From IMG/VR virus record IMGVR_UViG_2718218168_000001, positions 32,001 through 96,000 of that record: DNA of 64,000 nucleotides, one strand, 5' to 3'. The notes under the pieces are model-generated. The model searched no databases, was not told the DNA's origin, and saw nothing but the letters and a program-made list of their open reading frames with translations. This stretch comes from a virus. Its lineage: Duplodnaviria > Heunggongvirae > Uroviricota > Caudoviricetes. Shown here in pieces: positions 8,087 through 10,610 of the stretch. A program made the position numbers and the translations under genes. The stretch's first letter is position 1. The number at the start of each line of letters is the position of its first letter.

Positions 8087-8338
8087 TTAGTGAGTTAGCA
8101 GTTCCATTTTTTCGATGATTTCCGCATGAGCATCATCGTTGTCAACACTTAACTCGTTTAATGCCTCTCGCACTACATCAACTTCTTCTGGTTGGAAGAA
8201 GTCATCTCGGTAGTCACCAAATAGAACCGAAACAAGCCTGCCACCAGCAACATCAAGATTGGCGCTAACAGGTGGCTCTTTACCATCCTCAAATTCGACT
8301 ACAAAAGTTAATTTCCCCATCGTTACCACCAGCGACAA
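8087..8338 (-). CDS. Hypothetical small acidic protein
   Basis: 83-aa ORF in the same operon direction. Confidence 0.4.
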   Translation of the reverse strand: MSLVVTMGKLTFVVEFEDGKEPPVSANLDVAGGRLVSVLFGDYRDDFFQPEEVDVVREALNELSVDNDDAHAEIIEKMELLTH

Positions 8339-8402
8339 ATTGAATACAAACCCAGTGCTGCCGCCATCACAATTCCTACCGTTGCGAATGCTTCAGGCCA
8401 GC

Positions 8403-9245
8403 TCATTGACCTGCCTCCTGGGGAGGTTCTGGTAGCAGCATCCAGAACAAGGCGTTCCCTAACCACGATAAAGTGCCGTCGCTCAACTCCACGTATTCCC
8501 CTTGCACCTGTCCTGCCATATACTCACCGTGCTTTGAATAAATTAAAATCCAATCATCTTGAGCGGGCATTCGCTCACTACAGCTTATCCAACCATCCGG
8601 AGTTACCGGATAGTTGCCATTCACAAGGTCAGCTCGAACATATAGCGTGTCATCATGGTGCTGATTGTGGCTGCACCACGTTAATTCGCTTAACTCGCCA
8701 TCTTCTGGCCATACTCCAGCTGTTTGCAGCCAGATATGGGCTGGCGCATCCTGGCAAGGTGTATTAACTGGAAACTTGTAAGTTTGGCTTACAGGTTGGC
8801 TACCCTGAAGCATGGCAGCGTGGCAGGCATACTCAACGCCCTTAACTGCATCTGCGCAGTAGTTATAGCGATTGCATTCCACTAATTTCCGTTTGAGTTT
8901 TTCAATTGCCTGCGCGACATCAGCCTGTATTACAGGAACTGGCGGAGTGGTATATAGTTTTCGGCATTTGTTTATCCAACCGGCATGGTCAGGCGTGTCT
9001 GTAAAGCGCAAATCGTTTTCGTAGCCCTCACGACTACGTTCTTTCCATTCCGTCCACGGAACACCGCTATTCCAAGTGGGGCGAGTGCAGGACTGATACA
9101 GAACAGGTTCAGCTTCCAGCGCTGCCAGAGCAATCCGTGCCAGTTCTTCCGCTTCTTCTGCTGGCAGTACAACGTTGCTACCAGGTCCGTATGTTTCGCG
9201 CCACTGCTTGATTGTCAGCAGTCGCTCTTTGGTAATAGTGGTCAT
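8403..9245 (-). CDS. DUF551-like prophage protein
   Basis: 280 aa; C-terminal DGWISCSERMP...WILIYSKHGEY resembles the DUF551 signature common in lambdoid early-region genes. Confidence 0.5.
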   Translation of the reverse strand: MTTITKERLLTIKQWRETYGPGSNVVLPAEEAEELARIALAALEAEPVLYQSCTRPTWNSGVPWTEWKERSREGYENDLRFTDTPDHAGWINKCRKLYTTPPVPVIQADVAQAIEKLKRKLVECNRYNYCADAVKGVEYACHAAMLQGSQPVSQTYKFPVNTPCQDAPAHIWLQTAGVWPEDGELSELTWCSHNQHHDDTLYVRADLVNGNYPVTPDGWISCSERMPAQDDWILIYSKHGEYMAGQVQGEYVELSDGTLSWLGNALFWMLLPEPPQEAGQ

Positions 9246-9451
9246 TTGTTAATCCTCAAAACTTTATGCCCGGGCGCAAAAGCACGCGTTTTGTCTTTGC
9301 TTATTCGCCAGCCATCCTTGCGCGCCTCTTTTGCACAACCAGACCATGACGTACCGATATACTCACCGAAGTCTGGCACTGGATATACACCTTCCGTACA
9401 CTGGCGGCAGTCACAATAGAGATGCATGGTGTAACTTGCGGCAATAGCCAT
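9242..9451 (-). CDS. Small cysteine-rich protein
   Basis: 69 aa from MAIAASYTMHLYCDCRQC...; strong SD (AAAGGAGAG) upstream; ATG 1 nt after the upstream stop. Confidence 0.5.
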   Translation of the reverse strand: MAIAASYTMHLYCDCRQCTEGVYPVPDFGEYIGTSWSGCAKEARKDGWRISKDKTRAFAPGHKVLRINK

Positions 9452-9452
9452 A

Positions 9453-10214
9453 TCACTCTCCTTTGATGCGAATGCCAGCGGCGCGTGGCACATTAACTTC
9501 CACGATGCGCACAGTTGGTTTGTACATCTCAATCGCTGTCAGCCAGTCAGCGCCGGTCATATGCTTTTCTGCATCGCCATTAGTCCATTGAACCGGCACA
9601 CCAATAGCTTTCATCGCAATTTCTATTTCCCCGGCAATGGCGCTTTTCCCGCAACCAGTAAAACCAGAGACAACGACAAGAACTTCGCCTTTGGCTGGTT
9701 TTATTTCCCGTGCTTCCAGTTCTGCAATGCGCTTCTCTGCGGCTTCCAGCTTCTCGCGCATATCGTCAACGTACTCGACCAGAGATCCGCCAGCAGGAAT
9801 TTCGCACTCCTCGACCAGTTGGAAGTAGATATCAGCTGCGGCCCGTGTGTTGCTATGCCTGGCGTCGCCTATCTCACCTTCGCGAAGAGCATCGCGTTCG
9901 GCGGTAAGATTGGCTATTTTGCTGTCTTTGCCTTCCAGCTCAACGCGCAGCCTCCCAACCGTAAGCGCAATATCCTCGTTCTCCTGGTCGCGGCGTTTGA
10001 TGTATTGCTGGTTTCTTTCCCGTTCATCCAACAATGCCAGCGCGATATCTGGCGAAAAGTGCTTCATAAAATCGTTAAGCGCATTAATTCGCTGATCGAA
10101 AGGCATTACAGGTGCTTCACCGGCAATTTTTGTTTTTTCAGCGATTTCACGAAGCTTTTGATAATCAATCTGGCTCACTGGTTGCCTCCTTTGCGGAGTT
10201 GCGCTTCGATGCAT
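9453..10214 (-). CDS. Ead/Ea22-like protein with coiled-coil and C-terminal P-loop-like motif; start uncertain
   Basis: 253 aa; central coiled coil; C-terminal VVVSGFTGCGKSAIAGE; the 40-nt overlap with the upstream ORF suggests a later start. Confidence 0.45.
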   Translation of the reverse strand: MHRSATPQRRQPVSQIDYQKLREIAEKTKIAGEAPVMPFDQRINALNDFMKHFSPDIALALLDERERNQQYIKRRDQENEDIALTVGRLRVELEGKDSKIANLTAERDALREGEIGDARHSNTRAAADIYFQLVEECEIPAGGSLVEYVDDMREKLEAAEKRIAELEAREIKPAKGEVLVVVSGFTGCGKSAIAGEIEIAMKAIGVPVQWTNGDAEKHMTGADWLTAIEMYKPTVRIVEVNVPRAAGIRIKGE

Positions 10215-10414
10215 GAAAAAAAAGACTCCCGAGTGTGACAGTTAAGAGCTGGTGCGAACGCCGCGTTAAGAACGGCGGCATCACAGCCGTCATCAATATA
10301 GAGCGCAATTTTTTTCTCCAGGCGCGCTTTGGCTTCCTGCAACTGCATACCCCGGCACGCACGCGGGATATAATCAGCAATTTGAGCGATAGCTTTTTCG
10401 TTCTGTTTAAACAT
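10175..10414 (-). CDS. Hypothetical small protein
   Basis: 79-aa ORF, coupled to neighbours. Confidence 0.4.
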   Translation of the reverse strand: MFKQNEKAIAQIADYIPRACRGMQLQEAKARLEKKIALYIDDGCDAAVLNAAFAPALNCHTRESFFSCIEAQLRKGGNQ

Positions 10415-10610
10415 GCTTCACCTCGATAGGCTTGATGGTGTCTAACAGCAGTCGGCGGCGCGTATTTTCTGCAAAATGGCGGCGTCCGGTATCTTTGTGG
10501 TAAAACTCATTTTTGCCGACGACCCACATCCGCTCTGTTTGGTGCAGTTTTTTTACCTGCGGACCGTCTTTGGTGATCACGGTGCCGGTATGGGTTTTTA
10601 CGATTGTCAT
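10407..10610 (-). CDS. Hypothetical small protein
   Basis: 67-aa ORF. Confidence 0.4.
   Translation of the reverse strand: MTIVKTHTGTVITKDGPQVKKLHQTERMWVVGKNEFYHKDTGRRHFAENTRRRLLLDTIKPIEVKHV

Follow-up and report, generated by a model that had tools for sequence, protein, structure and literature searches.

The segment between positions 8087 and 10610 of the window (the whole 64,000-nucleotide stretch of viral DNA analysed here) very likely forms the central part of the hypervariable region that extends from pap to phd in a P1-like phage-plasmid, and carries part of an accessory operon whose genes are exchanged with lambdoid prophages. The cassette is real but ordinary and already known, and belongs to a documented recombination hot spot of P1-like elements. 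It occupies the slot between pmgT and pmgU, with the conserved C1 operator Op88 immediately upstream. The backbone was 97-98% identical to P1, the range over positions 741-6041 and 11181-22000 being 93-98.5% at the nucleotide level, bearing out an earlier note that had described the backbone as P1-like, and the nearest complete relative of the window was pB19429_2. Independent complete plasmids had the same arrangement at 99.9-100% identity, ruling out an assembly artefact. With pap and Op88 at one end, phd-doc at the other and a P1 backbone, the locus corresponds to variable region 8, or RD-5. The pap-lxr hot spot has been described as RD-5, with changes towards P7-like content (Venturini 2019, PMC6906374), and variable region 8 (pmgT-humD) was described in 2022, with pmgT of JL22 replaced by an ea22-containing cluster (PMC9603915). 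Both pmgT-humD and lambda ea22 are non-essential (PMC10695390), and recombining genes make up about 30% in P1-like phage-plasmids (PMC10879196). An Ea22 gene has previously been annotated at this slot in P7, D6 and JL22, and the GenBank annotation of P7 reads 'similar to Ead protein of lambdoid bacteriophage P22'. As both the hot spot and the P7 Ead annotation are published, the observation itself is not new.

Six tightly packed open reading frames (ORFs) were found on the minus strand between 8087 and 10610, overlapping successively by 4-8 bp (ATGA type), which is consistent with one translationally coupled operon:

10407-10610, minus strand: 67-aa ORF lacking cysteine (phrog_1226)
10175-10414, minus strand: 79-aa ORF with four cysteines (phrog_1344)
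9453-10178, minus strand: Ead/Ea22-family protein (PF13935, IPR025153; 68.7 bits against a cut-off of 27)
9242-9451, minus strand: 69-aa ORF with four cysteines, C-x-C-x2-C and one more (phrog_926)
8403-9245, minus strand: o280, a 280-aa mosaic ORF with a C-terminal DUF551 domain (phrog_60, E = 2.6e-67)
8087-8338, minus strand: o83, 83 aa, or 77 aa according to PGAP (phrog_3876)

The Ea22-like and DUF551-like ORFs and the small cysteine-rich ORFs reported in the earlier note were thus recovered, the first two by Pfam matches of 68.7 and 37.9 bits and the last as the 69-aa and 79-aa ORFs; the low-GC cluster that it placed to the left was also evident, with a GC content of 0.37-0.42 at about 6000-8100 compared to 0.47 for the whole window. 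The DUF551 match of o280 (PF04448, cut-off 22) extended over residues 218-276 and took in the whole profile. The N-terminal 50 aa of o280 were 94% identical to P7 Upf89.5 and the middle part 51%. Its start overlaps the upstream stop (ATGA), and PGAP splits it into a pseudogene fragment and a shorter DUF551 coding sequence. [quoted passage not shown] Neither the Ea22-family protein, nor o280, nor the operon's first gene product, o192, had a significant match among PDB sequences.

The cassette would be transcribed as part of a single minus-strand operon that runs from the Op88/OpmgT promoter after pap (the 'hea' operon of P7) towards phd. Continuity from Op88 to position 8087 is suggested by gene packing and by the annotations of P1 and P7. 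The head of the operon comprised:

11451-11467, minus strand: C1 repressor operator, equivalent to P1 Op88/OpmgT and P7 'Op(hea)'
11282-11368, minus strand: putative hydrophobic leader ORF of 28 codons, MNTAFKIIMAAIYFWLFSITFGGIVAHG, with an AGGAG Shine-Dalgarno sequence, read from the sequence
10694-11272, minus strand: o192, 192 aa, first gene of the operon (blastp; phrog_874, E = 2.4e-84)
10607-10684, minus strand: relic (25 codons, in frame) of a gene of the PAPS-reductase family, MHQIVSFSGGRASACLVHL/FEEVVA-stop, identified against the intact genes of pMS6198C and PA2

The operator, GTTGCTCTAATAAATCT, has two mismatches to the C1 operator consensus and differs from P1 Op88 by one base; it adjoins the stop codon of pap, and the annotated promoters P1pmgT/P2pmgT overlap it. 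Eleven C1-operator-like sites were found in the window, compared to 0.28 expected. Operator, promoter and leader were together 98% identical to P1 and P7. The leader ORF, which is identical in P1, one synonymous base off in P7 and unannotated in both, appears to be coding. The first gene, o192, is an allele of P7 Upf86.8 / RCS47 gp059 (85%) and, at 44%, of the first 232 aa of P1 PmgT. The earlier note called this gene 'ASCH'; the gene is present, but its best Pfam match, ASCH (PF04266), was sub-threshold (16.1 bits against a cut-off of 21.2, E = 0.019). The PAPS-reductase relic results from an internal deletion of about 790 bp, and the intact gene of about 270-290 aa with its PP-loop is not present. 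A generic scan for sigma-70 promoters and terminators inside the region gave nothing above chance and fewer sites than shuffled sequence, and an Rfam search of 5500-11800 gave no match at E <= 0.1.

Inter-phage recombination with lambdoid phages, as proposed in the earlier note, is shown directly by one stretch of the cassette:

8566-10041, no strand assigned: block that a chromosomal lambdoid prophage (NZ_CP027355.1, 414335-415810) shares at 100.0% identity

This block of 1,476 bp matches a prophage that adjoins sbcB in Escherichia coli 2013C-4991, and its borders are abrupt, on the left in a patch encoding the DUF551 'GNYP' linker (a repeat present at 8591-8619 and 6916-6944) and on the right in the conserved Ea22 N-terminal region. 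The operon of the 2013C-4991 prophage reads N, cIII, kil, a Rad52/erf-type recombinase, ssb, anti-RecBCD, DUF2737, Ea22, the 69-aa gene, DUF551 and int; the copy that is 100% identical over the 3' part of Ea22 sits in a PL operon, and the 69-aa protein (WP_000951712.1) occurs in both this prophage and pB19429_2. In Stx phage PA2 the order is 67-aa gene, 79-aa gene and Ea22, followed at some distance by DUF551 and, before it, the 69-aa Cys gene, the whole set lying downstream of exo/recT/gam/kil. Our 67-aa ORF was 94% identical to the PA2 gene that follows PAPS reductase, and the 79-aa ORF 92% identical to its PA2 counterpart. Synteny with PA2 and the 2013C-4991 prophage supports the view that these genes are of the lambdoid early-left type. 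Among 5,426 complete E. coli genomes, 3,226 had matches to parts of 8087-10610; 6,304 of the matching sites were chromosomal and 682 lay on plasmids.

We propose that the cassette consists of non-essential accessory genes of the type found in the distal PL (early-left, exo-xis/ea) operon of lambdoid prophages, and that P1-like plasmids and co-resident lambdoid prophages swap these genes by recombination. The crossover points seem to lie in three short, conserved stretches, namely the Ea22 N-terminal region (about 9927-10052), the junction of the Ea22 3' end with the following Shine-Dalgarno sequence (9447-9485), and the 'GNYP' linker (8566-8619), which would generate both mosaic operons and mosaic proteins. 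In the plasmid prophage the genes are presumably silent under C1; they would be expressed early after infection or induction and might then act on the host or on the choice between lysis and lysogeny. Mosaicism and a pro-lysogenic effect have been described for Ea22 (PMC7093339, PMC10834534), the latter being known only for lambda, 933W, Phi24B and P27 (PMC7093339), and by analogy with lambda and the Stx phages the protein encoded here may also be pro-lysogenic.

The Ea22-family protein is 241 aa long from a GTG at 10178, or 253 aa if translation starts from an ATG at 10214. The PF13935 match spans residues 14-129, and identity to lambda Ea22 was 52% over 109 aa. Its layout is a lambda-Ea22-like N-terminal and putative coiled-coil part, a mosaic middle and a conserved C-terminal domain; when homologues were aligned, the N-terminal part and middle formed a mosaic and the C-terminal domain a separate conserved block. 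A short N-terminal segment, a central coiled coil and a variable C-terminal domain, together with a '+GE' end (a basic residue followed by Gly-Glu), define the Ea22 family (PMC7093339), and the protein here fits this architecture, ending in AGIRIKGE. The C-terminal domain of about 75-85 aa is near-invariant in the aligned close homologues and present in 2,825 protein clusters. It carries a Walker-A-like motif, GFTGCGKS, with an invariant GK[ST] core; profile matches to APS_kinase and AAA_16 were both sub-threshold. AlphaFold2 gave an unusable model of the domain alone (pLDDT 43); when an alignment of 39 sequences was supplied, pLDDT was 82.5 for the best model and 58-67 for the other four, with no strands assigned by DSSP, and nothing in the PDB matched the best model with E < 4 in a Foldseek search. 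Ten longer proteins sharing the domain yielded no partner domains when scanned with Pfam. Downstream, the K-G-E codons of Ea22 form the AAGGAG Shine-Dalgarno sequence of the 69-aa ORF. One possible reading, which we offer tentatively, is that the short patches (the AGIRIKGE/AAGGAG end of Ea22 and the palindromic 'GNYP' linker) act as plug-in junctions and that the Walker-A domain is a portable nucleotide-binding module. The AGIRIKGE codons would make the AAGGAG that sets the ATG of the next gene, downstream genes or domains might be swapped while frame and translational coupling are kept, and the Walker-A-bearing domain of about 75 aa also occurs at one or other end of unrelated proteins rich in Ala. 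If true, such junctions would account for the '+GE' motif of Ea22 proteins, which has so far lacked an explanation.

The exchange could also be read in the reverse direction, with the cassette native to P1-like plasmids and lambdoid prophages as the recipients. Among about 680 PLSDB plasmids with a pap-pmgS backbone, 432 matched this Ea22 gene; the cassette is thus the common state in the P1 family, and it appears ancestral to P1, as this reading would expect. Its components are, however, about ten times commoner on chromosomes than on plasmids, they stand in a canonical PL-operon context in lambdoid prophages, and Ea22 is a lambda gene, which makes a plasmid origin fairly unlikely. Both directions of transfer probably occur, and individual directions are not readable from pairwise identity.

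It is unlikely that the block is instead a cargo island for defence or anti-defence, directed for example at host restriction or abortive infection and not at lysis-lysogeny. Such a role would suit an accessory hot spot beside the phd/doc addiction module; the same genes adjoin anti-RecBCD and recombination genes in lambdoid phages, and DUF551 has been noted in a phage MazZ, a dATP/dGTP pyrophosphohydrolase that reportedly inhibits restriction enzymes of the host (PMC10834534). Against it, PADLOC, whose models cover defence and not anti-defence proteins, matched none of the 10 ORFs scanned, and neither NCBIfam nor Pfam assigned a functional domain.

The earlier note had pictured a lambdoid early block replacing hot, lxr and humD of a P1-type ancestor in one modular swap. 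The P1 gene order on which it relied is correct (pap, pmgT, U, V, upfM-O, hot, lxr, humD, phd in the P1 annotation), the cassette is lambdoid in type, and hot, lxr and humD are indeed missing from the 64-kb window save for a 67-bp humD remnant. The position assigned to these three genes was imprecise, however, since in this window they correspond to 6042-6611, about 2 kb away, and what corresponds in P1 to 8087-10610 is the junction of a deletion within pmgT. The left flank comprised:

7615-7908, minus strand: o97, in the remainder of the variable operon (6593-7908)
7234-7608, minus strand: o124, membrane-like, in the same remainder
6593-7252, minus strand: o219, its C-terminus homologous to P1 PmgU (88%) and to the C-terminus of P7 Upf89.5
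6042-6611, minus strand: low-GC (0.37) segment of 570 bp with o154 (6044-6508), in place of the hot-humD segment of relatives
5975-6041, minus strand: 67-bp 3' remnant of humD, its last 17-22 codons, adjoining the phd promoter (blastn and tblastn against P1)

Positions 6593-7908 were collinear with pMS6198C (94.6%). Homology to P1, P7, RCS47 and pMS6198C ends at 6041 and restarts at 6612; loss of humD therefore has junctions of its own (6041/6042 and 6611/6612) and a different low-GC insert, present in only 8 PLSDB plasmids. Hot and humD were thus lost here separately, through the 570-bp replacement. Neither the window nor the remainder of pB19429_2 contained an intact ORF for HumD, a UmuD-like S24 peptidase, so that the suggested search for such a peptidase elsewhere came up empty; matches to hot, lxr and humD in the remaining 35 kb of that plasmid were noise. 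P7, RCS47, D6 and pMS6198C carry the Ea22/DUF551 cassette together with hot and humD, and the cassette is therefore no stand-in for hot/lxr/humD. P1 equals a pMS6198C-like arrangement minus a clean 5,258 bp, making the reference phage the probable loser of the cassette: it looks like a deletion derivative, with the chimeric pmgT and the pmgU remnant as apparent products of the deletion. The polarity is probably opposite to that proposed, P1 having lost the cassette, and a single swap is very unlikely; recombination between phages stands, replacement of hot/lxr/humD does not. That the ORFs are diverged versions of conserved P1 pmg/upf genes is barely credible, for although the flanks are P1-homologous (o192 resembles the N-terminal part of PmgT at 44% and the o219 C-terminus PmgU at 88%), none of the six ORFs in 8087-10610 matched the P1 pap-phd region (tblastn, E <= 1e-3) and, of the P1 variable-region proteins, only PmgT, PmgU, the humD remnant and Phd matched the window, so that the lambdoid assignment withstood the homology check.

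Variation between pap and phd involving Ea22-type genes has been known since the annotation of P7 and from several comparative papers, and the cassette adds little new biology. As pmgT and pmgU of P1 appear to be products of the 5.26-kb deletion, the reference phage serves poorly as a baseline here. The 100%-identical block of 1.5 kb cleanly illustrates the continuing flow of genes between lambdoid prophages and phage-plasmids, and the region would make a natural, C1-controlled, dispensable cargo site of relevance to P1 engineering.

Compared to known systems, the reports on variable region 8 and RD-5 (PMC9603915, PMC6906374) give the same boundaries at the level of gene presence and absence, without the junctions, the lambdoid-prophage link or the P1 deletion given here. 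The lambdoid and Stx exo-xis/ea regions (lambda ea22, PA2, 2013C-4991) share the same families in the same order at 90% up to 100% nucleotide identity. They differ in control, PL and N antitermination there compared to a P1 C1 operator here, and the Ea22-family gene of the window lies outside a PL operon, in a P1-type operon between pap and phd that lacks flanking exo/bet/gam or xis/int; lambda's orf60a, orf61, orf63 and ea8.5 are likewise absent, and the C-terminal domain of our Ea22-family protein is unlike that of lambda Ea22. The cassettes of pMS6198C (NZ_CP015837.1) and RCS47 are collinear with ours over 6612-8946 and 9721-10627 (94-96%), but they retain an intact PAPS reductase, of which only the relic remains here, and keep hot and humD; the first gene of pMS6198C is, in addition, of the P1 type (242 aa), and further small ORFs separate its DUF551 and Ea22 genes. 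The 'hea' operon of P7 (upf86.8 to upf90.8, AF503408) occupies the same slot, from pap/Op(hea) to humD/phd, under the same C1 operator. P7 retains humD and lxr-like genes, carries IS903, and has the phosphatase-like upf87.6 and upf89.0 where the 67-aa, 79-aa and 69-aa ORFs stand here. Its Upf89.5 is a single protein of 432 aa, the N- and C-terminal parts of which are split here between o280 and o219. The first P7 gene is 85% identical to ours, and the Ead-like upf88.3 of P7 ends in the identical residues AGIRIKGE.

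Six tightly spaced ORFs occupied window positions 8087-10610 on the minus strand:

8087-8338, minus strand: o83, an ORF of 83 aa without cysteines
8403-9245, minus strand: ORF of 280 aa, its C-terminus matching Pfam DUF551 (37.9 bits, cut-off 22)
9242-9451, minus strand: ORF of 69 aa with four cysteines
9453-10178, minus strand: Ea22-like ORF of 241/253 aa, matching Pfam Ead_Ea22 (68.7 bits, cut-off 27)
10175-10414, minus strand: ORF of 79 aa with four cysteines
10407-10610, minus strand: ORF of 67 aa without cysteines

Adjacent genes shared overlaps of 4-8 bp, which are typical of translational coupling, and all six matched PHROG families of unknown function (E 1e-37 to 1e-67). 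As the ORFs, their Pfam and PHROG matches and their cysteine counts fit, the earlier note had correctly placed Ea22-like, DUF551-like and small cysteine-rich genes here; its neighbouring 'ASCH gene' (10694-11272), the first gene of the series, was the weak point, with an ASCH score below threshold. PADLOC defence models matched none of the scanned ORFs. The 280-aa ORF combined the N-terminus of P7 Upf89.5 (94% over 50 aa), a diverged middle and the DUF551 domain, whereas the counterpart of the Upf89.5 C-terminus lay within a different ORF of the window, o219. PGAP annotated this uninterrupted ORF (minus strand) as a 'partial, missing C-terminus' pseudogene plus a shorter DUF551 CDS, as read in comparison sequences L001 (12317-12727) and L011 (8760-9680). 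The start of the ORF overlapped the gene upstream (ATGA), which points to the long form as the real product.

The backbone was that of P1: over its initial 22 kb, the window matched RCS47, SJ46, P7 and P1 at 97-98%. The P1 alignment covered 741-6041 (pacB, pacA, lpa, pdcB, pdcA, doc, phd and the last ~67 nt of humD) and restarted at 11181 with the first 91 nt of pmgT, followed by pap, pmgS and onward; the pap-to-phd content of the window was entirely different from P1. An assembly artefact was rejected, since two independent complete assemblies matched the interval at 100% (pB19429_2) and 99.9% (CP057976.1). Between pacB and c1, a position that is empty in P1, window 1-740 contained an ash / icd-like / ant module; it was a partial duplicate of the immI icd-ant region (window ~48019-49523), and this type of module has been noted in pTZ20_1P and RCS47 (Venturini 2019, PMC6906374).

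The cassette had counterparts in lambdoid phages. In the early-left operon of Stx phage PA2, kil, gam, recT, exo and several ORFs were followed by a PAPS reductase, the 67-aa gene, the 79-aa gene and Ea22, with a 69-aa-type cysteine gene and DUF551 beyond, separated by other ORFs; gene order was that of the window, and patches of the sequence were 90-92% identical at the nucleotide level. A chromosomal prophage adjoining sbcB in E. coli 2013C-4991 was 100.0% identical to window 8566-10041 (1,476 bp, with abrupt borders), within an operon of N, cIII, kil, Rad52-type recombinase, ssb, anti-RecBCD, DUF2737, Ea22, the 69-aa gene, DUF551 and int. Among 5,426 complete E. coli genomes, 3,226 also had parts of the interval; the matching sites numbered 6,304 on chromosomes and 682 on plasmids. 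We regard the 2013C-4991 match as decisive for the lambdoid connection; these data together demonstrate inter-phage recombination, part of it recent.

The idea of recombination in the earlier note was therefore right, but it named the wrong P1 genes and the wrong polarity. It had the cassette replacing hot, lxr and humD, but P7, RCS47, D6 and pMS6198C carried an Ea22/DUF551 cassette together with hot and humD. Homology to these four ended at window 6041, inside the humD 3' end, and restarted at 6612, leaving two features:

5975-6041 region: humD 3' remnant of 67 bp, next to the phd promoter
between 6041 and 6612: low-GC insert of 570 bp (GC 0.37) carrying o154, in place of the hot-humD segment

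The 154-aa o154 product had no family match, and the insert was found in only eight PLSDB plasmids, E. albertii and E. marmotae among them. With its own breakpoints and this rare, distinct insert, the hot-humD replacement is a separate event, ~2 kb from the interval.

As for polarity, the note had taken P1 as baseline and the cassette as replacement. From pap up to and including codon 232 of the 242-aa first gene, P1 and pMS6198C were 99% identical; the P1 sequence then jumped 5,258 bp to the 3' part of an o219-type gene, with a junction overlap of at most 1-2 nt (P1 AF234172 11892-11952 against pMS6198C 7655 and 2397). The C-terminus NPWVWVIEFKRIQE, conserved in both divergent first-gene alleles, was missing from P1 PmgT, which past codon 232 was an out-of-frame reading across the annotated pmgU. 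P1 pmgT (309 aa) thus looks like a deletion chimera, and PmgU is the C-terminal remnant of an o219/Upf89.5-type protein. Because of the jump, the truncated PmgT and the PmgU remnant, reference P1 appears to have lost the cassette, being pMS6198C-like minus 5,258 bp, and is probably not its ancestral baseline.

Traces of further exchange lay within and beside the cassette:

10607-10684, minus strand: in-frame PAPS-reductase relic of 25 codons, MHQIVSFSGGRASACLVHL followed by FEEVVA and a stop, between the first gene and the 67-aa ORF
6916-6944 and 8591-8619: palindromic 29-nt repeat, 'GNYP..PD' linker, in o219 and the DUF551 protein

In the relic, 19 aa from the N-terminus, with the SGG PP-loop start among them, were fused to the final 6 aa of a gene that was intact in pMS6198C and PA2. 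The 100%-identity block had one 'GNYP' copy at its left border, and the second copy lay directly past the P1 deletion junction; the repeat is a possible recombination hot spot. Ea22 ended in AGIRIKGE in lambda, P7, PA2, the chromosomal prophage and the window, and its DNA read AAAGGAGAGTGATATG (window 9447-9485), lambda being the exception in having lost the downstream ATG. Through its K-G-E codons this sequence supplied the Shine-Dalgarno and fixed the start of the following gene, which varied by element. Such a double role would account for the '+GE' motif, which those who described it in Ea22 proteins called unexplained (PMC7093339). The Ea22 3' end and 'GNYP' patches look like candidate preferred crossover points.

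Upstream of the first gene, the window retained a control region:

11451-11467: C1 operator GTTGCTCTAATAAATCT (Op88), abutting the pap stop codon
11396-11418: perfect hairpin with a 10-bp stem, directly upstream of the leader ORF
11282-11368, minus strand: unannotated hydrophobic leader ORF of 28 codons with a strong Shine-Dalgarno, between Op88 and the first gene

The ~200 bp beyond the operator, with the annotated P1pmgT/P2pmgT promoters, hairpin and leader, was 98% identical among the window, P1 and P7; the leader was identical in P1 and one synonymous base apart in P7. A generic promoter/terminator scan gave no site above chance. From the operator, this conserved stretch, gene packing and P1/P7 annotations, including the name 'hea operon' for the P7 unit downstream of the operator, we infer that 11272 down to ~6044 forms one C1-repressed unit.

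Lambdoid-type genes at this P1-like hot spot are already documented. RD-5 was defined as the pap-to-lxr region (Venturini et al. 2019, PMC6906374), a survey from 2022, covering 54 P1-like elements, listed pmgT-humD as variable region 8 and reported pmgT swapped for an ea22-containing cluster in JL22 (PMC9603915), and ~30% of genes in P1-like phage-plasmids recombine (Pfeifer and Rocha 2024, PMC10879196). GenBank notes for P7 and D6 already compared cassette genes with lambdoid phages. The pap-pmgS backbone occurred in 680 PLSDB plasmids, and 432 plasmids, possibly including some non-P1 ones, had a megablast match to the window Ea22 gene.

The genomic and evolutionary account is well supported; on the functional side, Ea22 is the only cassette ORF with experimental relatives. 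P1 pmgT, U, V, upfN/O and hot, and lambda ea22, score non-essential for lytic growth (PMC10695390). Our best account is a set of early accessory genes that would be silenced by C1 and whose products, we infer, may act on the host or on the choice between lysis and lysogeny. The Ea22 C-terminal domain was distinctive:

9456-9710, minus strand: domain of ~75-85 aa with a Walker-A-like GFTGCGKS and conserved GEIEI, GD.EK, ADW and YKP

It occurred in 2,825 protein clusters and varied hardly at all across an alignment of 19 close homologues. Unrelated Ala-rich proteins, up to 623 aa long, also carried it at their N- or C-terminus. Matches to APS kinase and AAA were sub-threshold, and structure prediction with a fold search gave no usable model or fold match. 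Ea22 of lambda and Stx phages is an early, tetrameric coiled-coil, pro-lysogeny protein with mosaic C-terminal domains (PMC7093339, PMC10834534); the window protein shared the family N-terminal part and '+GE' end, but its C-terminal domain was unlike that of lambda Ea22.
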